From: a virus
Taxonomy: Duplodnaviria > Caudoviricetes
DNA length: 27,294 nucleotides
Direction: 5' to 3' (one strand)
Virus record (IMG/VR): IMGVR_UViG_3300028136_000027
Location: 1 to 27,294 of that record
Under the pieces are notes generated by a model. The model ran no database searches and was not told the DNA's origin. It was given only the letters and a program-made list of their open reading frames with translations. Every line of letters begins with the position of its first letter. The first letter of the stretch is position 1. Both the position numbers and the translations under genes were made by a program. Of the stretch, positions 15,836 through 27,294 are shown piece by piece.

Positions 15836-17100
15836 TGAGTATATACCAAAAAGCAAGTTTAGTACAAATACCAAGCGGATATAAGGCAGCAGATGATAAG
15901 CTGTATTCTGTTGTGCCTAATAATGGAGATGGAGACTTTACAATAGATAGTGACGCCGATGCTACAAGAGTAAACAAAGACGGGCTTATAGAAAGCGTAG
16001 TTGCAGACCAAGCTAGACTTAACTATAATTTTATCGATGGTGTAGTACAGCCTGACCCACATTTACTTTTAGAGCCTAGTAGGTCTAATTTAATTACACA
16101 GTCTGAAACTTTTACAACCATATCTAAAGCAAATCTAACTGTTGCAGATAATACAAGTATAGTAGACCCACAAGGTGGAACAAACACTAAAACACTAACA
16201 GCAACAAGCTCAGGCCAGCCTAGATTAGAATGGCGAGGAACTGCTGTTCCTGCAAGTAATACAAGCTATGCTATGTCTTTTTGGGTAAGATACAATACCG
16301 CAAGATATGTAGCAATAGCGCACTATTCACAAACAGGCGAATATGCTATATTTGATTTAGTAGATGGCGAAGTAGAAAATGATGTAGGAACGCAAACAGC
16401 TAAAATAGAAGCGTACAAGAATGGATGGTATAGGGTATCTAAAAGTTTCGAAGTACCTTTAACTGCTTTGGAGAATTATTGGAAGCTTACATTGTGTACA
16501 CAAACAGCGCCATTTACAGGAGTTAGTGGCGAAAAAGCAGATGTTTTTGGTATGCAACTCGAAGCAGGTAGCTACCCAACAAGCTATATACCAACAAGCG
16601 GTTCACCAGCTACAAGGACAGAAGATTTTTGTAATATATCAAGTGGGGGTGCTAGTGTGATAAATAGTTTTAAAAACGAAGGTACTATTTTCTTGGACTT
16701 TGAAGTGCCAACAACTGACCCTTTTTTCCAAATAACTATTTGTAATTTAACAAGTGGAGGTAATAGAATTATATTAAATTTTATTTCTAATGAGATAAGA
16801 TTTCAGGTGCTTCAAAATGGTAGTGGTGCTGTGGGTAGTGTTTTTGCAAATACGCCTGTTTCTTATAATCAAAGAATTAAATTAGCAGGAAGCTTTAAAA
16901 CAGGAGCAGGTATCTTATACAAAAATGGTTCTTTAGCTGATGATATAGACACATCTTTTACTTGTGATTTTGGCGAAACATTACAAAGCGTTAAGTTTTC
17001 GGGAGCAGGTAATACAGCTAAATTTACAGGGAAAATATATCAATTTATGTATTTTGACACAGCCTTAAGTCAATCGGAGTTAGCAACATTAACAAGTTAA
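15835..17100 (+). CDS. Lectin-like (LamG/ConA-type) fibre tip or receptor-binding protein
   Basis: 'ATRVNKDGLIE', 'LLLEPSRSNL', 'NGWYRVS', 'QLEAGSYPTSYIPTSG', and C-terminal 'ALSQSELATLTS'. Confidence 0.7.
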   Translation: MSIYQKASLVQIPSGYKAADDKLYSVVPNNGDGDFTIDSDADATRVNKDGLIESVVADQARLNYNFIDGVVQPDPHLLLEPSRSNLITQSETFTTISKANLTVADNTSIVDPQGGTNTKTLTATSSGQPRLEWRGTAVPASNTSYAMSFWVRYNTARYVAIAHYSQTGEYAIFDLVDGEVENDVGTQTAKIEAYKNGWYRVSKSFEVPLTALENYWKLTLCTQTAPFTGVSGEKADVFGMQLEAGSYPTSYIPTSGSPATRTEDFCNISSGGASVINSFKNEGTIFLDFEVPTTDPFFQITICNLTSGGNRIILNFISNEIRFQVLQNGSGAVGSVFANTPVSYNQRIKLAGSFKTGAGILYKNGSLADDIDTSFTCDFGETLQSVKFSGAGNTAKFTGKIYQFMYFDTALSQSELATLTS

Positions 17101-17110
17101 TAAATAGATA

Positions 17111-17431
17111 ATGGAATTATTTAAGAAATACGAGTTTAACTCAAAAGAACAAGCAGATACTAAAATAACTGCTTTACCACATATAACTGATGAACTAACA
17201 GAAGAAAGTTATTTAGATGGTGGGCATACTATTGTACATCTAGGTCATTTATGGATTGAAGAGCCTACATACGATGAACAAGGCGAAATAGAAACAGAAG
17301 GAGTTGCATCTGAAAAATATAGTGTAGATGTGCTTTGGCAAGATTTAGACAGCAGCCCTTACGGTTGGGCTTCTTACGAAATTACAGTAGAGGGTAATGG
17401 TTCACACACCTTTTTAGGTAGAAACTTTTAA
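17111..17431 (+). CDS. Hypothetical protein, possibly a fibre assembly chaperone
   Basis: Acidic 106 aa following the tip gene. Confidence 0.5.
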   Translation: MELFKKYEFNSKEQADTKITALPHITDELTEESYLDGGHTIVHLGHLWIEEPTYDEQGEIETEGVASEKYSVDVLWQDLDSSPYGWASYEITVEGNGSHTFLGRNF

Positions 17432-17433
17432 TT

Positions 17434-17589
17434 ATGGACTTAAACTCGTTTAAACTTTACGTATTAAATTTATCAGCTATTACAGTTAGTACAATGGATA
17501 TATTAGAAGATAGCCTTAAAATACTTTTATTACTAGTTACTATTGGCTATACCGTTCAAAAGTGGTACGAGTTAAAAAAGAAAAAGTGA
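17434..17589 (+). CDS. Small membrane protein, putative holin (51 aa), not in the ORF track
   Basis: MDLNSFKLYVLNLSAITVSTMDILEDSLKILLLLVTIGYTVQKWYELKKKK. Hydrophobic segments, poly-Lys tail, GTGA overlap with the endolysin. Confidence 0.7.
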   Translation: MDLNSFKLYVLNLSAITVSTMDILEDSLKILLLLVTIGYTVQKWYELKKKK

Positions 17590-17939
17590 GATACTTTAAT
17601 TATAGTGAGTTTGATAGCCCTGATGTACAAGGTAGTGGTCAGATGATGGACAAGACTTTACTAGAAATGCTAGACGAAGTAAGAGACAAATTCGACAAAC
17701 CCATACACATCACAAGTGGCTTTAGAACACCTTCACACAATGAAGCAGTAGGTGGTGTAGAAACAAGTAGCCACTTAAAAGGTTTAGCAGTAGACATAGC
17801 TTGTAAAAAGAGTACAGATAGATTTGATTTAATTAACTGCCTTTTAGACGTAGGGTTTAGCAGGATAGGAGTAGGTAATACTTTTATACACGCTGACATA
17901 GACACTGACAAGACACAAGGTGTAATTTGGACATATTGA
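17586..17939 (+). CDS. Endolysin, peptidase M15 family
   Basis: 'ITSGFRT..HNEAVGG', 'SSHLKGLAVD' and 'FIHAD' zinc-peptidase motifs. The GTG at 17586 is a more likely start than 17562. Confidence 0.85.
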   Translation: MRYFNYSEFDSPDVQGSGQMMDKTLLEMLDEVRDKFDKPIHITSGFRTPSHNEAVGGVETSSHLKGLAVDIACKKSTDRFDLINCLLDVGFSRIGVGNTFIHADIDTDKTQGVIWTY

Positions 17940-18085
17940 GCATAGCAATTATATTTTTATTCCCTACTTCGTTTATAGGTGGTATATCTTACTATCCTAA
18001 AAATGCAGATTACCCATTTAATGAACTAAACATTTATTTGTTTTTGATACAGTTACAATTTAGAACTTATGAGCAAACCATTTAA
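17936..18085 (+). CDS. Small hydrophobic lysis-cassette protein (49 aa), not in the ORF track
   Basis: TTGA overlap. MSIAIIFLFPTSFIGGISYYPKNADYPFNELNIYLFLIQLQFRTYEQTI. Confidence 0.5.
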   Translation: MSIAIIFLFPTSFIGGISYYPKNADYPFNELNIYLFLIQLQFRTYEQTI

Positions 18086-18512
18086 AGATACTAAAGTAGG
18101 TAAGTTTCTAATAGGCGAGAAAGGTTTGTTTAAGAATTTAGCCAATACACTGCCCGACAAAGGCTTTTTAGGCGTTTTAAAGAACTTAATACATACTGAT
18201 AATAGTTTATCCCCATTTGAAAAAGAAAAGGCGTTAGAACTGCTTAAAATGGATATACTAGAAATGGAGCAGGTCACAGAAAGATGGACTAGCGATAATA
18301 CAGCGGATAGTTGGATGTCGAAAAACACAAGACCACTTACATTACTTTACTTAACATTTATGACTACTTTGTTTGTTATTTTAGATAGTAGTGATAGCCC
18401 TTTTAAAGTTAGTACTGAATGGGTAGAACTTCTTAAAACACTTTTAGTTACTGTTTATGTTGCATATTTTGGCAGTAGAGGCTTTGAAAAATACAAAAAA
18501 ATTACTAAATAA
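18069..18512 (+). CDS. Holin, GTA 3TM-holin-like
   Basis: 'RWTSD...DSWMSKNTRPL', two hydrophobic helices and 'AYFGSRGFEK'. Confidence 0.75.
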   Translation: MSKPFKDTKVGKFLIGEKGLFKNLANTLPDKGFLGVLKNLIHTDNSLSPFEKEKALELLKMDILEMEQVTERWTSDNTADSWMSKNTRPLTLLYLTFMTTLFVILDSSDSPFKVSTEWVELLKTLLVTVYVAYFGSRGFEKYKKITK

Positions 18513-18660
18513 TATATAGTTATATATATATATATATAGTTATATATAATATTGATATATAGTATAACAAGTATATAACATATAACTACTATATAACACC
18601 TACTATATATAGCATATAACTATAAATAAAAACTACTATATATCAGTTAGTATATATGTG
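18513..18660. repeat. AT-rich repeat array, candidate replication origin
   Basis: (TA)n at 18521-18538, TATATAGT x3 facing ACTATATA x3, TATAAC x5. Longest non-coding stretch, at the late/early boundary. Confidence 0.6.
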
Positions 18661-18696
18661 TTAAAAACTATATTTTTAGATGTTTAGAAGTAGGCT

Positions 18697-18704
18697 TATC
18701 TTTG
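18697..18704 (+). promoter_or_regulatory. Early promoter -7 element (TATCTTTG), leaderless
   Basis: TAnnTTTG followed by 4 nt and the ATG at 18709. Confidence 0.7.
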
Positions 18705-18708
18705 GCAT

Positions 18709-18921
18709 ATGATAGAAAACATATTAGCAGAACAAACAACAGACAATCAGAAGATAGACAAGCTACTAGAATTAGATTGCAACCTATATACAAATCTTGG
18801 TAGTGATAGTACAAAGACCGAGAAGCAAGAAGTAAAGCGTATGTCAAGAAAAATATATAAAGCAATACAGGGTATTAATGAGCCTATTGGTAAGTCTTTA
18901 TTACAAGCTATGGATAAATGA
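18709..18921 (+). CDS. Hypothetical early protein (70 aa)
   Basis: Directly after the promoter, with an ATGA overlap to ninG. Confidence 0.7.
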   Translation: MIENILAEQTTDNQKIDKLLELDCNLYTNLGSDSTKTEKQEVKRMSRKIYKAIQGINEPIGKSLLQAMDK

Positions 18922-19280
18922 CTAGAAGCAAAATAGTTAAAAAGCTAGATAGTGTGTTCAGCCTATACATCCGCAATAGATTTGCAAACAATGGCAAAGC
19001 TGAATGTTTTACTTGTGGTAAAGTAGATGATGTAAGTAGATTACACGCAGGACACTTTATGAGCCGTAAACATTATGCAACTAGATGGGATACGGTAAAT
19101 GTACAAGTACAATGCCCTAAATGTAATTTATTTGGTCAAGGAGAACAGTACACCTTTGGGCTTAATTTAGACAAAGAGTACGGAGAAGGTACAGCAGAAA
19201 AGTTACAGCAAAAAGCTAGAAATTTAGTTAAATTGTCAAATGATGACCTAAATGAGTTGATTGAAAAGTTTAAAGTATAA
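18918..19280 (+). CDS. ninG: NinG/Rap-like recombination endonuclease
   Basis: 'LDSVFSLYIR', 'CFTCG', 'HAGHFMSR', 'TRWD..NVQVQCPKCN'. Confidence 0.85.
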   Translation: MTRSKIVKKLDSVFSLYIRNRFANNGKAECFTCGKVDDVSRLHAGHFMSRKHYATRWDTVNVQVQCPKCNLFGQGEQYTFGLNLDKEYGEGTAEKLQQKARNLVKLSNDDLNELIEKFKV

Positions 19281-19354
19281 CCTGCGCTTGTAGGTTAGTT
19301 TCTCTATATGTTTGTTCGAAAAGGGGTTGGTTTTATTACTAGCCCTTTTTTTTT
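19278..19354 (+). ncRNA. Candidate 3'UTR-derived antisense regulatory RNA
   Basis: 8-bp hairpin at 19278-19297, linker complementary to 23630-23643 and 23091-23102, then a terminator. Confidence 0.5.
19319..19354 (+). terminator. Intrinsic terminator after ninG
   Basis: AAAAGGGGTTGGT-TTTATT-ACTAGCCC-T9. Confidence 0.85.
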
Positions 19355-19367
19355 AAAATATTTTTTG

Positions 19368-19375
19368 TAAGTTTG
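19368..19375 (+). promoter_or_regulatory. Early promoter -7 element (TAAGTTTG), leaderless
   Basis: TAnnTTTG followed by 4 nt and the ATG at 19380, immediately after the terminator. Confidence 0.65.
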
Positions 19376-19379
19376 CCTT

Positions 19380-19511
19380 ATGACATATAATGAGGATTTA
19401 TTACGGCTAAGAGAAGCAGAAGCCGAAGCACTTCGAAAAAAAGTAGAAATGCTTGAAGCAAAAATAGAGATACTTACACAACAAATAATGACAAATGATA
19501 TATACGAGTAA
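19380..19511 (+). CDS. Small coiled-coil protein (43 aa), not in the ORF track
   Basis: MTYNEDLLRLREAEAEALRKKVEMLEAKIEILTQQIMTNDIYE. Confidence 0.65.
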   Translation: MTYNEDLLRLREAEAEALRKKVEMLEAKIEILTQQIMTNDIYE

Positions 19512-19887
19512 AGTAAATACAGTAGTAAAAGGCGAAAGTTTTAGACTACCTGACGGAGTTACTATGAATAAATACACAGTAACATTCGCTAACGGACATA
19601 ACCCTAATGTTTATTCTCCTAAGGAATTGACATTTAATGAAGGGGATGAAGTTGAGTATGATTTAGACCAAAATAAAAACAAGGCTAAAATACTTGGTAA
19701 GAAAAGTAGTGTAGCACCACCTGCTACTAAAAACAACTATTCTAATCCTAAAGATGATGTACAGAAATACATTATAAGACAAAGCAGCTTAAATAGAGCA
19801 ACTGACTTGTATGCAGGGAAAGAAATAAATACAACTGAAATAATTAATTTAGCACGCACATTTGAAAATTACGTGTTTAACGGATAA
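19495..19887 (+). CDS. Putative ssDNA-binding/annealing protein
   Basis: OB-like beta N-terminus, linker, and helical 'IIRQSSLNRA' C-terminus, in the replication module. Confidence 0.45.
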   Translation: MIYTSKVNTVVKGESFRLPDGVTMNKYTVTFANGHNPNVYSPKELTFNEGDEVEYDLDQNKNKAKILGKKSSVAPPATKNNYSNPKDDVQKYIIRQSSLNRATDLYAGKEINTTEIINLARTFENYVFNG

Positions 19888-19898
19888 AAATAAATATT

Positions 19899-20165
19899 AT
19901 GACTAAAACTTGGGTAGACGGATTGAGAATATTCGACAACAAACAGGAATGGATAGTTTGCGACATTAAAATAAATGCAGACGAGATGATAAATTGGATA
20001 AACCAAAATAGAGCAAACGTCAACGAACGTGGTTCTATTCCAATTACGATAGCTAAAAGTGAGAAAGGATTGTACTCAATGCTAAACACTTATGAAGTAC
20101 AGAAGTCAAAGGAAGTTACAACAGCACAACATTCTCCTGACCGAGAAGCAGACTTGCCTTTCTAA
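19899..20165 (+). CDS. Putative single-stranded DNA-binding protein
   Basis: Ends in the SSB-type acidic tip 'EADLPF' and precedes the helicase. Confidence 0.55.
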   Translation: MTKTWVDGLRIFDNKQEWIVCDIKINADEMINWINQNRANVNERGSIPITIAKSEKGLYSMLNTYEVQKSKEVTTAQHSPDREADLPF

Positions 20166-21076
20166 TGCTTATACAGCTAGACAATCACATAAAGAAGTTA
20201 GACGAATACCGAGCAGGAACCTTAAAAACAGGGTTAAGGCTTGGTATTCCAAGACTTGATGAACACTTTAGGTTTAAGTATGGAGATTTTAATATCATAC
20301 TAGGACACGCAAACGTAGGAAAAACATCTCTAGTCTTATACCTAATGACACTATACGCTATGAAGCACGGCATTAAATGGCTTGTGTTTAGTAGTGAGAA
20401 TGAGCCTTATTCTATTATAAGAAAAATAGTAGAATTTAGAGAAGGCAAACCAATAAACAAAATAGAGGAAACACACTACAAGGAGCAAGTAAAGTGGATT
20501 AACGAACACTTTAAATTTATTGATGGTTCAAAGCTATACACTTACAAATCATTACTTGATTTAGCACAGCACGTAAAAAAGGCTTGGGATTATCAGGGTT
20601 TTTTATTAGACCCTTACAACTCACTAAACAAAGACAAAGATGTACTAAAAGGTATATCAGGACACGAGTACGACTACCAAGCAACAAGTGAGATACGAAT
20701 ATTCTGCAAAGAGAATAATATAAGTACTTGGGTATGTACACACGCTGCTACACAAAGTTTAAGAGAGAAACACCACAAAGGAGATTTTTATGAAGGTCAT
20801 CCTATTCCACCTAGTGCAGCATCAGTTGAAGGTGGGGGTAAGTTTGTTAATAGGTGTGATAACTTTTTAGTGATACACAGATACATATACCATCCTGCTG
20901 ATTGGATGTATTCACACATTCACGTTAAAAAAATTAAGGACGTCGACACTGGTGGCAGACCAACAGCGATGTCAGACCCTATAAGACTAGAAAGCGTAAA
21001 GAACAACGTAGGCTTTAACGTAGAGGGAAAGAACCCTATACAATATCCTAAACGTGAGCAAATAGAATTACTGTGA
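20165..21076 (+). CDS. DnaB-like (SF4) replicative helicase
   Basis: Walker A GHANVGKT, 'FSSEN', Walker B-like 'FLLDPYN', 'VEGGGKFVNRCD'. Confidence 0.85.
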   Translation: MLIQLDNHIKKLDEYRAGTLKTGLRLGIPRLDEHFRFKYGDFNIILGHANVGKTSLVLYLMTLYAMKHGIKWLVFSSENEPYSIIRKIVEFREGKPINKIEETHYKEQVKWINEHFKFIDGSKLYTYKSLLDLAQHVKKAWDYQGFLLDPYNSLNKDKDVLKGISGHEYDYQATSEIRIFCKENNISTWVCTHAATQSLREKHHKGDFYEGHPIPPSAASVEGGGKFVNRCDNFLVIHRYIYHPADWMYSHIHVKKIKDVDTGGRPTAMSDPIRLESVKNNVGFNVEGKNPIQYPKREQIELL

Positions 21077-21390
21077 ATTTCAAAAATACATACAGACCTT
21101 TACCAAAAAGCCTTACTATTAAAAAGTCAGGTATAGATGGTTTAGGTTTGTTTGCTATTGATGATATTAAGGTAAGCACAGAATTAGGTATTACACATAT
21201 AGACCTTTGGGATAATTGGATAAGAACACCATTAGGGGGGTTTATAAATCATTCTACATATCCAAACTGTTATATTAAAGAAATAATTAAACAAGATAAA
21301 AAGTGTAGAGTTTTATATACTTTGCGAGATATAAATAAAAAAGAAGAACTTACAGTTTATTACAAAATAAAAGAGTATATTAACCATTAA
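21073..21390 (+). CDS. SET domain protein
   Basis: 'KKSGIDGLGLFA', 'GFINHS..PNC' and 'EELTVYY' SET signature motifs. Confidence 0.85.
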   Translation: MNFKNTYRPLPKSLTIKKSGIDGLGLFAIDDIKVSTELGITHIDLWDNWIRTPLGGFINHSTYPNCYIKEIIKQDKKCRVLYTLRDINKKEELTVYYKIKEYINH

Positions 21391-21399
21391 ACAACCACA

Positions 21400-21897
21400 T
21401 TGATAACCAAGATACTAACAAGCAAACATAATAAATGGATAAGTTATTGCCGTAGTTGGGGGTGTAATCCTGACACATCAGAGGACTTAGTGCAAGAAAT
21501 GTATTTAAAAGTATTAGTACTTATACAAAACGGTATTGATATTACATTTAAAGACGATATAAACGACTTTTATATTTATAAAACGCTTCGTAGTATGTTT
21601 TTAGATTTATGCCGTAAGGAGCAACGTACACAAGTTGTAGACCTAACAGACGATTACATAAAACACTTAATAGAAGAAAAGACAAAGGTAGAGTTAGAAG
21701 ATGAAAAGATATTTGAAGAAGCCTTTGACAAAGTAAACCAAGCACTAAATGAGATGCATTGGTACGACAAAAAGGTATTTGAACTTGTACAGGACACTAA
21801 CAATATATCTGCACTATCTAGGGAAACCAATATAGAGTACAGAAGCCTTTACAATACCTATCAGAAAGTTAAACGCAAGATAAAAGATAAGCTGTGA
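21400..21897 (+). CDS. Phage ECF-like sigma-70 factor
   Basis: Region 2 'SEDLVQEMYLKV...LRSMFLDLCRK' and region 4 HTH 'ISALSRETNIEYRSLYNT'. Confidence 0.8.
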   Translation: MITKILTSKHNKWISYCRSWGCNPDTSEDLVQEMYLKVLVLIQNGIDITFKDDINDFYIYKTLRSMFLDLCRKEQRTQVVDLTDDYIKHLIEEKTKVELEDEKIFEEAFDKVNQALNEMHWYDKKVFELVQDTNNISALSRETNIEYRSLYNTYQKVKRKIKDKL

Positions 21898-22373
21898 GCA
21901 CAAATATTTTAAATGTAACAAGCGAAAGGTATAAAATATGTTCTTCTGATGGCAATAAATTTGAAGAATTGTTTAAGAATAAAGTTTTAGAAAAAAAATT
22001 AAATTACAGCAAATCAGATAAAAAAGATGATTGGTATAACCATATTGATTGCTATGTTAATGGATATGGTGTTGACGTAAAAGGTAATAGACACATAAAT
22101 ACTATTTGGCTTGAACATACAAACGTAAACGGTAATTTAGGTTGGTTAAGAGGTAAGGCTAAATATATTGCTATGCATATTTTTGAGTTAGATTGTTTTT
22201 CTATTTATTTAAGAAAAGATTTATTAAAATATGTGAATGAAAATGTATTTGAAACTACTGAAAATAAAAATGATTATTTAAAGTTTTATACTAGAAAAAA
22301 ATGGGGTAAAAAAGATATGGTAGTAAAAGTAAGATACAATGATATAAAACATTTAGAAATAAATAAGCTATGA
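21894..22373 (+). CDS. Putative PD-(D/E)XK-type nuclease
   Basis: 'FEELF...HID...VDVKG...IWLE...GWLRGKA'. AT-rich and flanked by a 12-nt repeat. Confidence 0.5.
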   Translation: MSTNILNVTSERYKICSSDGNKFEELFKNKVLEKKLNYSKSDKKDDWYNHIDCYVNGYGVDVKGNRHINTIWLEHTNVNGNLGWLRGKAKYIAMHIFELDCFSIYLRKDLLKYVNENVFETTENKNDYLKFYTRKKWGKKDMVVKVRYNDIKHLEINKL

Positions 22374-22495
22374 GATTAGGAGATTTAGTATATTACATAA
22401 CCAAGTACACAGGTATAAGATATGTTTACAAAAAGATATATCCTGACTGTGGGTGTGATGACCGTAGAAAGAAATGGAATGATTTAGAATTATAA
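22370..22495 (+). CDS. Small Cys-motif protein (41 aa), not in the ORF track
   Basis: MRLGDLVYYITKYTGIRYVYKKIYPDCGCDDRRKKWNDLEL, with an ATGA overlap. Confidence 0.7.
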   Translation: MRLGDLVYYITKYTGIRYVYKKIYPDCGCDDRRKKWNDLEL

Positions 22496-22496
22496 G

Positions 22497-22718
22497 ATGC
22501 CAAAAGGAAAAATGAGCCAACACCAAGTATCACAATGGCAGGTATTTCTTGCTACACTTGGAAACAAATTAACAAACGTGCAGTATAAATTTGTATGTGA
22601 GATACACGCTGATTTATTTGCACACCCTTACCACGAACCTTGTACGTGCAGCCCAAAACGCATAAAGGAATGGATAGCACAAATAACAAGGATATATGAA
22701 ACTAGACTTAATACATAG
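22497..22718 (+). CDS. Hypothetical protein with a PCTC motif
   Basis: 73 aa ORF tightly packed in the operon. Confidence 0.65.
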   Translation: MPKGKMSQHQVSQWQVFLATLGNKLTNVQYKFVCEIHADLFAHPYHEPCTCSPKRIKEWIAQITRIYETRLNT

Positions 22719-23109
22719 TTTTGAGAAAGCCCTAGTTACTGCTCTTAACCTAGACGGTTGGAGATTAGTACACACAGGGGAAACAATGCTACCATACGAT
22801 GCACAGGGTATTACTCCTAAAGGATTAAAGTGTGTTATTGAGATGAAGTTTAGAGATAAGTACTATGAAACCAAAATACTAGAGGTTGGTAAGTATAACA
22901 ATCTTATGAAGATGGATAGCGATATTCAGAAGTTTTACTTTGTAAATGACCCTAAAGGAAACTATATGTTTTGGCTAAATGACCTAAAGGATTTAAAGAA
23001 AGAAGAACTGTACTGTCCTAAAACTACAATGTGGAACACCAATAAACAAAATAAAAGTGTATATTTGTTACAAGAGAAACAAGCTATAATAACAAACATA
23101 TATGAATAA
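22696..23109 (+). CDS. Putative PD-(D/E)XK-type nuclease
   Basis: 'YDAQG...VIEMKFR...ILEVGKY' arrangement (D...ExK). Confidence 0.55.
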   Translation: MKLDLIHSFEKALVTALNLDGWRLVHTGETMLPYDAQGITPKGLKCVIEMKFRDKYYETKILEVGKYNNLMKMDSDIQKFYFVNDPKGNYMFWLNDLKDLKKEELYCPKTTMWNTNKQNKSVYLLQEKQAIITNIYE

Positions 23110-23254
23110 TAAAGATTTTATTGCTATGAGTTGGGAAGAACGCATAGACTATTTTAGAGGTGTAGGGTTAAGAACTACATTTAATATTGCTATGGATGAT
23201 GACCATCCCTTATGCATAGATGCAAACGATTACCTAGACGAGAAGAATGAATAA
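23102..23254 (+). CDS. Small hypothetical protein (50 aa), not in the ORF track
   Basis: MNNKDFIAMSWEERIDYFRGVGLRTTFNIAMDDDHPLCIDANDYLDEKNE, overlapping both neighbours. Confidence 0.6.
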   Translation: MNNKDFIAMSWEERIDYFRGVGLRTTFNIAMDDDHPLCIDANDYLDEKNE

Positions 23255-23381
23255 GAAACGAGCAAGTCAATCAGCAAGAATACAAGAACTAGAACAGCAT
23301 ATAGTTAAAATATATATGATACTAGAACAAGTAGTAGAACAGCTAAAAAACAAGGATGAACAGGGAACTACTAAAACTTAA
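23247..23381 (+). CDS. Small hypothetical protein (44 aa), not in the ORF track
   Basis: MNKKRASQSARIQELEQHIVKIYMILEQVVEQLKNKDEQGTTKT. Confidence 0.55.
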   Translation: MNKKRASQSARIQELEQHIVKIYMILEQVVEQLKNKDEQGTTKT

Positions 23382-23631
23382 ATTTCAAGGAGACTTTACA
23401 GCAGCCTCTCACATCATACAGAAGTGGTTAGAGAAAAGCCCTGACAATAAAGAACTGAAACACGTTACGGAGTATTTAACAAACTCCTATATTTATGCAA
23501 CAGCTTGTGAGATGCAAATAAAAGAAGCTAACGCAATTATAAACAGATTAAGAGAAAAGAGAGATAAGCAAAAAGAACTAGCAGACGATTACAAAGAACT
23601 ATACGAGAAACTACAAGAGAAAACATTATAA
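23356..23631 (+). CDS. Hypothetical protein with a C-terminal coiled coil
   Basis: 91 aa ORF in the operon. Confidence 0.65.
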   Translation: MNRELLKLKFQGDFTAASHIIQKWLEKSPDNKELKHVTEYLTNSYIYATACEMQIKEANAIINRLREKRDKQKELADDYKELYEKLQEKTL

Positions 23632-23645
23632 CAAACATATAGATT

Positions 23646-24416
23646 ATGATAACATTACTAAACGGAGAGAAGTGGGATAGGCAAGAGTTACTATCTAAAA
23701 TGGATGATGATAGCTTTTACTATGGGCATTTAGGTAAACACGCATTAAGTAGCAGCAGCATTAAATTGTTACAGACAAGCCCAAAAAAATATCACTACAT
23801 TACAAAGTACAGCAAGAACGAAACTTCTCCTGCTTTACGTGCAGGGCATTTATTCCACACAGCTATACTAGAGCCTGAAAAATACAGCGAGATAAAATTC
23901 ATAGACGTACAAAGTAGAAACGCTAAAAAGTTTAAGGAAGCAGTAGAGGAGTATGGCGAATGTTTTACAGCAAAAGAGAGGGGCGAAAACGAAAGGTTAA
24001 TAGATGCTTTCTTTAAGAACGAACAAGCCTTACAACTTATTACTGATTGCCAAACAGAAGTACCTGCTATTGGTAATATAGATATGATGCCATTTAGAGG
24101 CAAAGCAGATGTATTAGGTAAGCAAGGTATAGTAGATTTAAAAACTACAACCGACATACGAGCATTCCCCTATTCAGCTAAAAAATACGGTTATGATATA
24201 CAAGTGTATATATACTGCCAACTATTTAACATACCTTATACGGAGTTTACGTTTATAGCTTTAGACAAAGGCACATTAGACATAGCGATATACGACGTAT
24301 CAGAGGACTTCTATTTAGAGGGGGAACGCAAGACACTAGAAGCAATAGATAGATACAAGATGTTCTTTATAGAAGATGCAGACCTAGATAGTTACACATT
24401 AAGAGGCACACTATGA
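23646..24416 (+). CDS. RecE/exonuclease VIII-like PD-(D/E)XK nuclease
   Basis: 'LSSSSIKLL..SP', 'GHLFHTAILEP', 'RGKAD...IVDLKTT', 'YGYDIQVYIY'. Confidence 0.85.
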   Translation: MITLLNGEKWDRQELLSKMDDDSFYYGHLGKHALSSSSIKLLQTSPKKYHYITKYSKNETSPALRAGHLFHTAILEPEKYSEIKFIDVQSRNAKKFKEAVEEYGECFTAKERGENERLIDAFFKNEQALQLITDCQTEVPAIGNIDMMPFRGKADVLGKQGIVDLKTTTDIRAFPYSAKKYGYDIQVYIYCQLFNIPYTEFTFIALDKGTLDIAIYDVSEDFYLEGERKTLEAIDRYKMFFIEDADLDSYTLRGTL

Positions 24417-24547
24417 AACGATTTATAAGCGATATGGAAACCATACAACTAGCCATCAAGCTAGGAGATTATGAAGATGCTTTAGAAATGCTACAAGAGG
24501 TTAAAGAAGAAATGATTATATTAGACGCATTGAATTATGATAAATAA
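24413..24547 (+). CDS. Small acidic hypothetical protein (44 aa), not in the ORF track
   Basis: MKRFISDMETIQLAIKLGDYEDALEMLQEVKEEMIILDALNYDK, with an ATGA overlap. Confidence 0.6.
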   Translation: MKRFISDMETIQLAIKLGDYEDALEMLQEVKEEMIILDALNYDK

Positions 24548-24556
24548 TAAATAGTT

Positions 24557-25261
24557 ATGTCTATTGGTGATTTAAAGCAAAATATTATTGGTGGTGGCAT
24601 TACTTTAAACGATGATGTTTTGTATTCTATTGAAAACGAAATAAAAAACAAAAATAAATATATATATATTATTACGTTATTAGATACCGAAAATAAAAAA
24701 TATACTAAAATAGGTGTTTCTAAAAATGTAAATAAGAGGTTTAATCAATTACAACAACAAATAGAATATCAAATAAACCTTTATTATAAAAAATATATAC
24801 CTAATACTTATGTAATAGAAAAGCACTTAAAAGATTTTTTAAAAAAACACAAGATAGATGAATACACTTTTGGTAAGTATAACAAAAAGAACATAAAATT
24901 ACCAAATCATACTGAATGGTTTTTAATAAATGAAGATGTAAGAAATAATATAAAAAACTTTTTAAATGATATAATTGTAGTAGACAATGGTAAACAAGAA
25001 GACGAAAATATTTATTTTACAAACGAGAAACAAGAAGTAAAAGAGAATAAAAGTTATTCAAGCGTAGTTTTAAGAAATAAAAAGAAATTCTTTAAGTTGA
25101 GTTTGTATCAGTTAAAGCAAATTAGAATACTAAAAGATTTGGTTAAAAACGATAGGGAACTTAATTTTTTAAAAGGTATGATTGACAACTTTCAGCTAAA
25201 TAGACCTATAACAGAGAAACAAAAAGATTATTTAAGATATATTTATATTAAATATTTATGA
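24557..25261 (+). CDS. GIY-YIG superfamily (T5orf172-like) nuclease
   Basis: 'YIYII...TKIGVSKNVNKRFNQLQ...IEKHLK...TEWF'. Visibly more AT-rich than its neighbours. Confidence 0.75.
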   Translation: MSIGDLKQNIIGGGITLNDDVLYSIENEIKNKNKYIYIITLLDTENKKYTKIGVSKNVNKRFNQLQQQIEYQINLYYKKYIPNTYVIEKHLKDFLKKHKIDEYTFGKYNKKNIKLPNHTEWFLINEDVRNNIKNFLNDIIVVDNGKQEDENIYFTNEKQEVKENKSYSSVVLRNKKKFFKLSLYQLKQIRILKDLVKNDRELNFLKGMIDNFQLNRPITEKQKDYLRYIYIKYL

Positions 25262-25437
25262 TGCGTAAGACAACACTAATAAAAAGTTATTCCTACTTTA
25301 AAGGCGAACTACAAAGAGCATACGAAAACACAAACGAGAAACTAATAAACTATTATACTGATGAAATACAAAAACTTCTTACTAAATACTACACAAAGAA
25401 ACAGGGAGAACATACAACACCTAAAAACTTTGATTGA
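25258..25437 (+). CDS. Small hypothetical protein (59 aa), not in the ORF track
   Basis: MMRKTTLIKSYSYFKGELQRAYENTNEKLINYYTDEIQKLLTKYYTKKQGEHTTPKNFD, with an ATGA overlap. Confidence 0.55.
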   Translation: MMRKTTLIKSYSYFKGELQRAYENTNEKLINYYTDEIQKLLTKYYTKKQGEHTTPKNFD

Positions 25438-25861
25438 GAAGCAAACAGGAAAAGACATAACAATAAACACTAGACACAGAGAAATAGTATTTGCTAGAAA
25501 GATATACTACAAGATACTTACCCTAACTACTAAAATGAGTTACAAGTCTATTGGGGATACACTAGGGCAGACACACGCAACCGTAATACATTCCCTAAAT
25601 AACTTTGATTGGGATTATAACCACAACCCTGCATTTAAAGAAGCATACGATAGAGTATACAACTTGTACACTAAAAAGGGTACTGTTGCTACTGTTGAAA
25701 CAATGCTATACGAAAACAGAGTATTAGAAGAAAAGATAGTTGAACTAAAAGGTCAGATAGACGAATTGAGAAACGAGTTAAAAGAAACACGTAGAAACAA
25801 TATAAGACCTAGAAACCAACAAGCAACTATATACAATGCTTCTGAAACAGTAATACTGTGA
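25361..25861 (+). CDS. DnaA C-terminal (domain IV)-like HTH protein; start uncertain
   Basis: 'TRHREIVFARKIYY...MSYKSIGDTLGQTHATVIHS' resembles the DnaA DNA-binding domain and is followed by a coiled coil. Confidence 0.75.
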   Translation: MKYKNFLLNTTQRNRENIQHLKTLIEKQTGKDITINTRHREIVFARKIYYKILTLTTKMSYKSIGDTLGQTHATVIHSLNNFDWDYNHNPAFKEAYDRVYNLYTKKGTVATVETMLYENRVLEEKIVELKGQIDELRNELKETRRNNIRPRNQQATIYNASETVIL

Positions 25862-25953
25862 AAAAAGCTATATACATAATAGCAATTATATGGGCTACCT
25901 TTCTAACAATAGGAGTAATAGGTGGGTTGATTAAAACAATAGTAAACTTATGA
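25858..25953 (+). CDS. Single-TM micro-protein (31 aa)
   Basis: GTGA overlap. MKKAIYIIAIIWATFLTIGVIGGLIKTIVNL. Confidence 0.55.
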   Translation: MKKAIYIIAIIWATFLTIGVIGGLIKTIVNL

Positions 25954-26042
25954 AAATAAACCACACAAAAATATTAGCTTGGATAGTAATGGGAATTATG
26001 ACAATAGCTATATGGAATAGCATATATAATTTAGTGTTTTAA
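25950..26042 (+). CDS. Single-TM micro-protein (30 aa)
   Basis: ATGA overlap. MKINHTKILAWIVMGIMTIAIWNSIYNLVF. Confidence 0.55.
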   Translation: MKINHTKILAWIVMGIMTIAIWNSIYNLVF

Positions 26043-26058
26043 AAAAGTAAACTAATTA

Positions 26059-26073
26059 CGTTATACTTATATG
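26059..26073 (+). promoter_or_regulatory. Putative late promoter, copy 4 (CGTTATACTTATATG)
   Basis: Identical to copy 3 and ends in the terS ATG. TAAAA lies 14 nt upstream. Confidence 0.7.
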
Positions 26074-26430
26074 TATAATACTGAAGAAATAAAACAACAG
26101 GCTATTGATGCTATCAAAGAAAATAACCTATTATTCATAGGGGATATTATGGCATATGTACCCTACTCCAAGCAAACTTTTTACACACATAAATTAGACG
26201 AAGTAGACGATATAAAAAGCCTACTGCAAAAAAACCGTTCTGATATGAAAGTTAAGATGCGTAAGAAGTGGTACGAAAGTGATAACGCAACATTACAAAT
26301 AGGACTGATGAAGCTGATTAGTGATGATGATGAAGCACACAGATTGAATGGTACAAAGCGTGAGATAAAGCACGATACAAAACAAAAGAGTTTTAAGGTA
26401 GAAGTGATTGACCACAATACAAGTAAATAA
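26071..26430 (+). CDS. terS: Terminase small subunit
   Basis: 119 aa with HTH-like 'SKQTFY', directly upstream of and overlapping terL. Confidence 0.7.
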   Translation: MYNTEEIKQQAIDAIKENNLLFIGDIMAYVPYSKQTFYTHKLDEVDDIKSLLQKNRSDMKVKMRKKWYESDNATLQIGLMKLISDDDEAHRLNGTKREIKHDTKQKSFKVEVIDHNTSK

Positions 26431-27294
26431 AGTATATAACCATCTAACTAACTCTAATAAGAAGATAACATTAGAAGTTGGTGGAACAAGAAGCGGTAAG
26501 ACATACAATGTCCTCCTGTGGATTATTCTACACTATTGTCAACACAACGAAAACAAGATTATAACTATATGCCGTAAGACGTTCCCTGCATTGAGGGGTA
26601 CTGTAATGCGAGACTTTATAGAGATACTTAAAAATATGGACTTGTATGATGATGAGAAGCACAACAAGTCAAACCACGAGTATAAGCTAGACAGCAACCT
26701 TATAGAGTTTATTAGCCTAGACCAAAGTCAGAAAGTAAGAGGGCGTAAAAGAGATTTGCTGTTCTGTAATGAGATGAATGAACTTGATAGAGAAGCATTC
26801 CAACAGTTAGCATTTAGAACAACAGGAAAGATTATAGGAGACCTTAACCCTTCTGATGAGTACCATTGGATATGGGAAAGACTAGAGCCAAGAGATGACG
26901 TAGAAATATACAACACTACCTACCTAGACAATCCATTTATAGACGATAGCATAAGGAGCGAGATAGAACTACTAAAAGATACAGATGAGAACTATTGGCG
27001 CATATATGGACTTGGACAAAGAGCAATATCTAAAGCAACTATATTCAAATACACAGAGATTGATAGCATACCTGATGATGCACAGCTTGTGGCTTATGGG
27101 ATGGACTTTGGATTTAACGACCCTACTACACTTGTTGCGACATACAAGAAAGACCACAACCTATACTTTAAAGAAATGCTATACAGGTCAAAGATGACAA
27201 CAGAGGACATACACCAATACTTAAAAGGTGTAGAGGTATTAGGTATGACTTATGCAGATAGCGCAAGACCTGAAATAATAGAACAGCTTAGAAG
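26408..27294 (+). CDS. terL: Terminase large subunit (PBSX/SPP1-like), 3'-truncated, not in the ORF track
   Basis: TTG start. Walker A GGTRSGKT, Walker B 'LFCNE', 'DLNP', 'TYLDNPF', 'YGLG', nuclease 'GMDFGFNDP' and 'ADSARP'. Confidence 0.92.
   Translation, partial: MTTIQVNKVYNHLTNSNKKITLEVGGTRSGKTYNVLLWIILHYCQHNENKIITICRKTFPALRGTVMRDFIEILKNMDLYDDEKHNKSNHEYKLDSNLIEFISLDQSQKVRGRKRDLLFCNEMNELDREAFQQLAFRTTGKIIGDLNPSDEYHWIWERLEPRDDVEIYNTTYLDNPFIDDSIRSEIELLKDTDENYWRIYGLGQRAISKATIFKYTEIDSIPDDAQLVAYGMDFGFNDPTTLVATYKKDHNLYFKEMLYRSKMTTEDIHQYLKGVEVLGMTYADSARPEIIEQLR

Follow-up and report, generated by a model that had tools for sequence, protein, structure and literature searches.

A short segment behind ninG is predicted to yield an RNA antisense to early-gene start regions in a family of uncultured phages

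We identified a short segment directly behind ninG that probably yields a trans-acting small RNA directed against start regions and damping several early genes of the phage that encodes it. The initial annotation had proposed an antisense relation to two translation start sites in a single phage. Across the family, the segment pairs better with the phage's own start regions than with foreign ones in 19/19 clades and in 7/7 hold-out clades, with controls at chance and with covariation between the segment and the leader of the helicase gene. The targets are several early genes, differing by clade.

The element in the window and its surroundings

The window, a stretch of 27,294 nt that makes up the entire contig, carries structural genes, lysis genes, an early module from 18709, and terminase, in that order. 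The early module contains ninG, a helicase gene, a SET-domain gene (21073-21390; PF00856, E 7e-12), a sigma-like gene, an exonuclease VIII-like gene, and a DnaA_C-HTH gene. A low-GC stretch 3' of the exonuclease region carries an inserted T5orf172/MUG113-domain gene (24557-25261). Among the 40 ORFs scanned on this possibly incomplete contig, none matched an integrase or repressor family, and a lysogenic state is thus not indicated. The nearest relatives are uncultured IMG/VR contigs, and among 50,697 phage records no cultured relative exceeded 36% identity for NinG or 35% for the helicase. RNA runs containing the phage DNA were mostly from seawater.

Promoters of the Bacteroidota follow the −33/−7 consensus TTTG/TAnnTTTG (PMC6847099). 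TAnnTTTG boxes ahead of the operons, together with two Flavobacteriales MAG contigs that carry the post-ninG unit (a weak host hint, as phage contigs can be mis-binned), indicate a Bacteroidota host, and the hosts of the family are probably Flavobacteriales. An E. coli-type promoter scan is not applicable to this host group. The −7 boxes of the two early operons lie only 4 nt 5' of the ATG, a layout kept in the close clade, so both early mRNAs would be leaderless or nearly so. Immediately 5' of the ATG of four late genes (7338, 8728, 10972, and 26060) we observed the motif GTTATA-n-TTAT, a possible late promoter for leaderless mRNAs that is perhaps read by the sigma-like protein encoded at 21400-21897. 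T/A-rich low-complexity repeats at 18510-18660, between holin and the first early promoter, form a possible origin or regulatory region.

The hairpin, linker, and terminator first described behind ninG hold in all their coordinates, in the sequence as well as in the predicted fold (Table 1). The whole 77 nt (19278-19354) folds at −26.8 kcal/mol (z −5.4), and 0/200 shuffles were equally stable. An Rfam scan of the element returned no family at the gathering score and two weak matches (E 0.36 and 0.73), neither of them C4. A candidate promoter within the element at 19291-19298 departs from the consensus and has no well-spaced TTG. Metatranscriptome contigs of seven runs (X1-X6 and X8; contigs only) cover ninG and the next operon, and those from X4 and X5 extend into the linker, to 19315; the gap over the element coincides with strain differences and does not bear on expression.

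Table 1. Features of the window bearing on the post-ninG element and its predicted targets
Feature	Position	Strand	Basis or remark
TAnnTTTG −7 box, probable promoter of the 70-aa ORF/ninG transcript running into the element	18697..18704	+	function inferred
NinG/Rap junction endonuclease gene	18918..19280	+	PF05766 E 4e-11; phrog_5034 E 2e-28
5' hairpin of 8 bp, from the ninG stop codon onward	19278..19297	+	fold prediction
Unpaired linker, predicted seed	19298..19316	+	fold prediction and conservation
Intrinsic terminator, stem 19318-19351, U tail to 19354	19318..19354	+	fold prediction
TAnnTTTG −7 box, probably the promoter of the following (replication) operon, whose ATG is at 19380	19368..19375	+	function inferred
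TAnnTTTG box within the 3' end of the 137-aa ORF, possible internal promoter	23060..23067	+	kept in 26/26 sequences listed
Predicted target site 2, 12-nt complement, last base the A of the 50-aa ORF ATG	23091..23102	+	
50-aa ORF, predicted target	23102..23254	+	no family found
Predicted target site 1, 14 nt complementary to the linker, in the spacer ahead of the exonuclease gene	23630..23643	+	
Exonuclease VIII-like gene (PD-(D/E)XK, DUF3799), predicted target	23646..24416	+	phrog_412 E 8e-33
Weaker 10-nt complement, 15 nt upstream of the DnaA_C-HTH ORF ATG (25361)	25336..25345	+	−12.4 kcal/mol

Both complements reported initially, the 14 nt before the exonuclease ATG and the 12 nt at the ATG of the 50-aa ORF, are exact, and both are longer than any other antisense match to the linker in the window. 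Site 1 is the reverse complement of linker positions 19303-19316 and ends 2 nt before the ATG at 23646; site 2 falls within the last codons of the 137-aa ORF. The weaker complement ahead of the DnaA_C-HTH ORF was not a match in the start-region test (−25 to +12). Both targets lie behind the possible internal promoter at 23060, whose box is also under coding constraint, and a leader starting there would include site 2 plus an 8-nt site at 23073-23080. A cis hairpin is predicted over site 2 (23057-23102), and its 5' arm overlaps the possible promoter box; site 2 pairs with 23057-23070 at −7.1 kcal/mol (z −1.5). In a long read-through mRNA site 2 is predicted to be paired (mean unpaired probability 0.13), and only a transcript begun at the internal promoter would leave it unpaired.

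The match exceeds chance in length and not in energy. When the 22-nt linker, whose limits were set after the match was seen, was dinucleotide-shuffled, 0/2000 shuffles reached 14 nt among 44 start regions (−30 to +14), 3/2000 reached at least 12 nt there, and 9/2000 reached 14 nt genome-wide. The best duplex energy at a start region, −16.8 kcal/mol, was equalled by 263/2000 shuffles and is unremarkable by itself; the match is A/U-rich. Taken alone, the case from the window for antisense pairing is suggestive only. The strongest linker duplex in the window (−21.0 kcal/mol) sits within the terminase gene, at 26776-26797.

Pairing of the unit with start regions across the family

Three scans yielded 216 ninG loci, with ninG as the anchor gene immediately upstream of the unit across the whole family. 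A short body lies between the ninG stop and the terminator in 202/216 loci, 127 of these 202 behind a −7 box. For the clade set we retained 71 loci, each with a distinct body and no fewer than 10 genes downstream, and sorted them by single linkage (75% NinG identity, or a 13-mer in common) into 19 clades. Left out were 23 pattern-scan loci (unoriented, mostly on the same contigs), 3 edge loci, 14 loci without a definable body, 45 loci with fewer than 10 genes downstream, and duplicates of a body in the same clade (157 reduced to 71). In most loci the unit consists of a promoter, a short U/G-rich body without an ORF, and a terminator, with a median length of 64 nt (54 loci measured). A Bacteroidota −7 box precedes the body in 57/71 distinct loci, and in 47 of these 57 it is accompanied by a TTG at a spacer of 19-20 nt. 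Body sequences differ from clade to clade. The window's clade has no clear promoter of its own, and its RNA would thus derive from the transcript starting near 18709. The proposal that the RNA is the 3' end of an early transcript is accordingly most likely right for the window's clade, while most relatives have their own promoter.

For the cognate test, genes were called by a simple ORF rule (approximate calls) and start regions were taken from −25 to +12. For each body, the three best ungapped helices in the phage's own start regions were scored, and their rank was taken among draws of equal size from the start regions of other clades. Own start regions outscored foreign ones with a clade-mean quantile of 0.87, above 0.5 in 19/19 clades (Wilcoxon p 7e-5, the clades being related to one another). 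Ranked by the longest Watson-Crick run, the quantile was 0.79, with 16/19 clades above 0.5. Own start regions also outscored the phage's own coding windows in 18/19 clades and shuffles in 19/19, and a re-run with pooled foreign draws gave 18/19, one clade falling below 0.5. The reversed body, its reverse complement, the post-terminator spacer, and an antisense piece of ninG gave quantiles of 0.51-0.58, none significant. Two further scans and the two MAG loci then supplied a hold-out of 42 loci unlinked to the earlier clades. With the method frozen, 7/7 new clades (18 distinct usable loci) showed the effect (p 0.008); the reversed and reverse-complement controls were not significant (reverse complement 0.48-0.51). 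Non-target start regions were not more alike within than between genomes (7/19 clades), so a genome-wide style of leader does not explain the pairing. Predicted seeds were no more open than the remaining positions of the body (5/16 clades).

Predicted pairing is concentrated shortly before the start codon. Coverage of own start regions peaks at 9% between −12 and −4, against 3.8% for foreign ones and ~1-2% in the flanks. With a match defined as a score within the top 2% of foreign scores, 132/1538 start regions were matched; 54/71 loci have at least one match, 36/71 at least two, and 17/71 none. Early genes (within 6 kb) were matched in 120/1109 cases, late genes in 11/337, and structural or lysis genes in 9/501, with a background of 2.6%. 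Free-standing starts were matched in 19-22% of cases and starts overlapping an upstream gene in 4.7%. The sigma-like gene was matched in 0/70 cases; selective sparing was rejected as an explanation, as 54/70 of its starts overlap the upstream gene and such starts are rarely matched.

The positions covered by the helices also bear on the sign of regulation. Matched helices cover −3, −6, −12, or −13 in 117/132 cases, and 53/132 cover the A of the ATG. Initiation in Flavobacterium johnsoniae relies on adenines upstream of the start codon and on little structure, and paired start regions lower translation (PMC6847099). Bacteroidota leaders are unstructured, A-rich, and without a Shine-Dalgarno sequence, so that a duplex over these positions would plausibly repress. 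We consider it highly unlikely that the RNA instead activates or stabilises its targets at the same sites, for example by opening the cis hairpin at site 2 or by shielding cleavage sites. The predicted sequestration of site 2 in the long mRNA is consistent with such activation, as is the target-dependent effect of the satellite RNA SviR (bioRxiv 2022.04.08.487710); the coverage of the initiation positions and the F. johnsoniae results argue against it.

Orthologous leaders follow the body of their own clade. The helicase leader covaries with the body in 10/12 clades (permutation p 0.005), and in five clades the helicase leaders have different sequences, each matching its own clade's body. Covariation was also found for an Erf-like annealing protein (6/7, p 0.015), a 91-aa ORF family (9/13, p 0.015), and the window's exonuclease family (5/9, p 0.04); altogether 9/30 orthologous families reach p<0.05, uncorrected. 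The exonuclease family is a strong match in 1/9 clades, only in the window's clade. The earlier suggestion that the RNA times recombination or nuclease activity is not upheld as a general role by this count, nor by the loss of site 1 among close relatives described below.

The foreign start regions show a peak at the same positions, −12 to −4 (3.8% against ~1.3-1.6% in their flanks), which suggests that the bodies are generically directed against leaders. The RNA might then act outward, on co-infecting or superinfecting relatives sharing the tag or on A/C-rich leaders of the host. Such a role would fit a linker that is nearly fixed in the window's clade while individual target sites come and go, and it has precedents in the C4 RNA, which serves immunity (PMC5320573), and in STnc6030 and sas, which serve exclusion (PMC12197685). 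Own start regions are nevertheless paired more than twice as often as foreign ones, and the 40 ORFs of the possibly incomplete contig, with no integrase or repressor family, do not point to lysogeny; we give an outward role only a small chance.

Conservation and rearrangement among close relatives

We compared 33 loci of the window's clade whose NinG proteins are 79-99% identical. The 26-nt core at 19290-19315, which includes the linker, is identical in 30/33 relatives, while synonymous sites of ninG in the same loci differ at up to 40/93 positions (up to 43%). The three other cores show one substitution, one 2-nt deletion, and one rearrangement with a displaced copy. The terminator has been replaced by another in 5 relatives with the linker kept. 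A plain intrinsic terminator without further role was therefore rejected, the linker being more conserved than the terminator. In an alignment of 15 sequences, three pairs of the 5' hairpin have a one-sided change, the terminator has likewise changed on one side only, and no compensatory pairs were found in either.

The two target sites differ in their history. Site 2 is unchanged in 20/20 relatives covering it, though the gene behind it differs; this constancy is moderate evidence only, since the site is also coding sequence. Among 18 relatives, site 1 is full in 7, altered and still pairing in 6 (−13.2 to −16.5 kcal/mol), and lost in 5 through gene overlap, with the linker unchanged. Site 2 is different in the five nearest loci that lack the linker, and as these form one lineage they count as one event. 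The expectation that linker and targets covary in relatives thus held across clades for orthologous leaders such as that of the helicase and not for site 1 within the window's own clade.

The conserved linker contains a TAnnTTTG box at 19307-19314, which raises the alternative that in this clade it is retained as a promoter element or for binding a protein, that the targets share the box on the minus strand, and that site 2 is kept by its coding role and by the local hairpin with 23057-23070. A promoter here would fire directly into the terminator, and the nearest upstream TTG is 16 nt away rather than 19-20. The box occurs 13 times on the plus strand of 17000-27294, mostly inside genes, and fixes only 6 positions of a 14-nt match. 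The seeds of other clades are not promoter-like and show the same pairing effect. We regard this alternative as very improbable.

Rearrangements are found next to the element. In L009, L014, L019, L020, and L029 (also in L036-L038) a variable minus-strand cassette, made up of one or two small genes plus a −7 box and a terminator of its own, lies between ninG and the next promoter; the leaders of these cassettes resemble the target sites (an 8-nt match, and a scored match in L014). In L005 (10331-10642) the hairpin is joined to a minus-strand promoter and leader, followed by a partial duplicate of the 43-aa ORF and then by the linker and terminator; this arrangement appears to be a recombinant or an assembly chimera.

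These arrangements allow a reading in which the complementarity is a by-product at the level of DNA: either recombination has copied and inverted the leaders of swappable early-gene cassettes, or the body is what is left of the leader of a minus-strand gene since lost, and the terminator is the sole function. The cassettes with similar leaders adjoin the element in the five loci named first, L005 is rearranged at the linker itself, and the spacer variants of the exonuclease look as though a longer sequence mirroring the linker had been shortened by deletion. Allowing G-U pairs did not beat allowing A-C pairs (10/19 clades, p 0.48), and plain Watson-Crick pairing, which copying of DNA would also produce, makes up most of the signal and gave the highest z, so this test showed no preference for RNA pairing and did not distinguish RNA-level pairing from DNA-level copying. 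The mirror is always antisense, however, with the reverse-complement control at chance (0.52-0.54; hold-out 0.48-0.51), and a full bipartite promoter is kept before an ORF-less body in 47/57 loci. CAT is present in only 17/71 bodies, with minus-strand frames of 1-37 codons, and a remnant would not remain identical in 30/33 loci at such divergence of synonymous sites. The by-product reading is weakened by an orientation that is always antisense, a promoter that is retained, and a linker that does not vary, and we judge it improbable.

Proposed action and relation to known RNAs

We therefore return to a trans-acting RNA directed against the phage's own early start regions. In the window's clade it would most likely come, whole or processed, from the 3' end of the 70-aa ORF/ninG transcript, and in most other clades it would be made from its own host-type promoter. 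Its unpaired U/G-rich linker would pair with the A/C-rich start regions of several early genes, in the window those of the exonuclease and of the gene behind the 137-aa ORF. The duplex would block ribosome loading, and early protein synthesis would be damped as the RNA accumulates. From the sequence patterns we infer that transcription, pairing in vivo, and the sign and timing of regulation are likely as proposed.

The predicted mode of action resembles that of two described RNAs. GibS of Bacteroides thetaiotaomicron is trans-encoded and represses mRNAs lacking a Shine-Dalgarno sequence by pairing with their start regions without Hfq (PMC7366714). Common to both are a Bacteroidota setting without Shine-Dalgarno sequences or Hfq/ProQ, an A/U-rich single-stranded seed, and the start regions of more than one mRNA as targets. 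GibS is encoded by the host and acts on metabolic genes, as proven in vivo, whereas the post-ninG unit is phage-encoded and predicted, is ~64 nt long, targets the phage's own genes with seeds that vary between clades, and has no sequence match in Rfam. The C4 RNA of P1 and P7 is likewise a phage RNA (~77 nt) that is cut from a longer transcript, pairs in trans with ribosome-binding regions of its own phage, and takes its specificity from a variable seed (PMC5320573). C4 has three stem-loops with loop seeds a' and b', is processed by RNase P, and acts in immunity (PMC5320573). The post-ninG element, in contrast, has two hairpins with the seed in the linker before the terminator, and has no C4 match in Rfam. 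Its predicted targets are several replication-module and small early genes rather than an antirepressor of an immunity region; no antirepressor, repressor, or integrase family was found among the ORFs scanned on the possibly incomplete contig. By these comparisons the element is predicted to work like GibS and C4 and belongs to neither family.

Other phage RNAs that tune their phage's own expression post-transcriptionally, 24B_1, sar, OOP, aQ, and PAK_P4, mostly act in cis as antisense RNAs or on one target and are linked to lysis or to the lysis-lysogeny switch, and none is described in the review's account of them as mirroring a tag of several early starts (PMC12197685). SviR, encoded by the PLE satellite, is a trans-acting multi-target sRNA that lowers translation of phage genes; it differs in belonging to a satellite and in acting against a helper phage in Vibrio (bioRxiv 10.1101/2022.04.08.487710). 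Few trans-acting sRNAs of phages have known targets, and those covered in the same review come from proteobacterial phages (PMC12197685). We found no description of the post-ninG element in the literature searched. The main text of PMC10690425 holds no passage on NinG or Flavobacteria, and four of its supplements gave no match; the element may stand unannotated among the 8495 candidates of that study.

If the proposed action is correct, these phages would have a means of translational control in the absence of a Shine-Dalgarno site that could be blocked, and the unit would provide an RNA route to early-gene shut-down as well as a small natural scaffold for knocking down translation in Flavobacteria. 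We suggest more tentatively, and with some doubt, that early shut-down is brought about by this one tiny RNA, with lineage-specific tags in the leaders of selected early genes, which lack a Shine-Dalgarno sequence, and their mirror in an RNA made from a host-type promoter behind ninG coevolving as lock and key, timing the infection and possibly discriminating self from related phages. Seeds and targets change together across 26 clades, making the unit a testable, family-wide case in marine phages.
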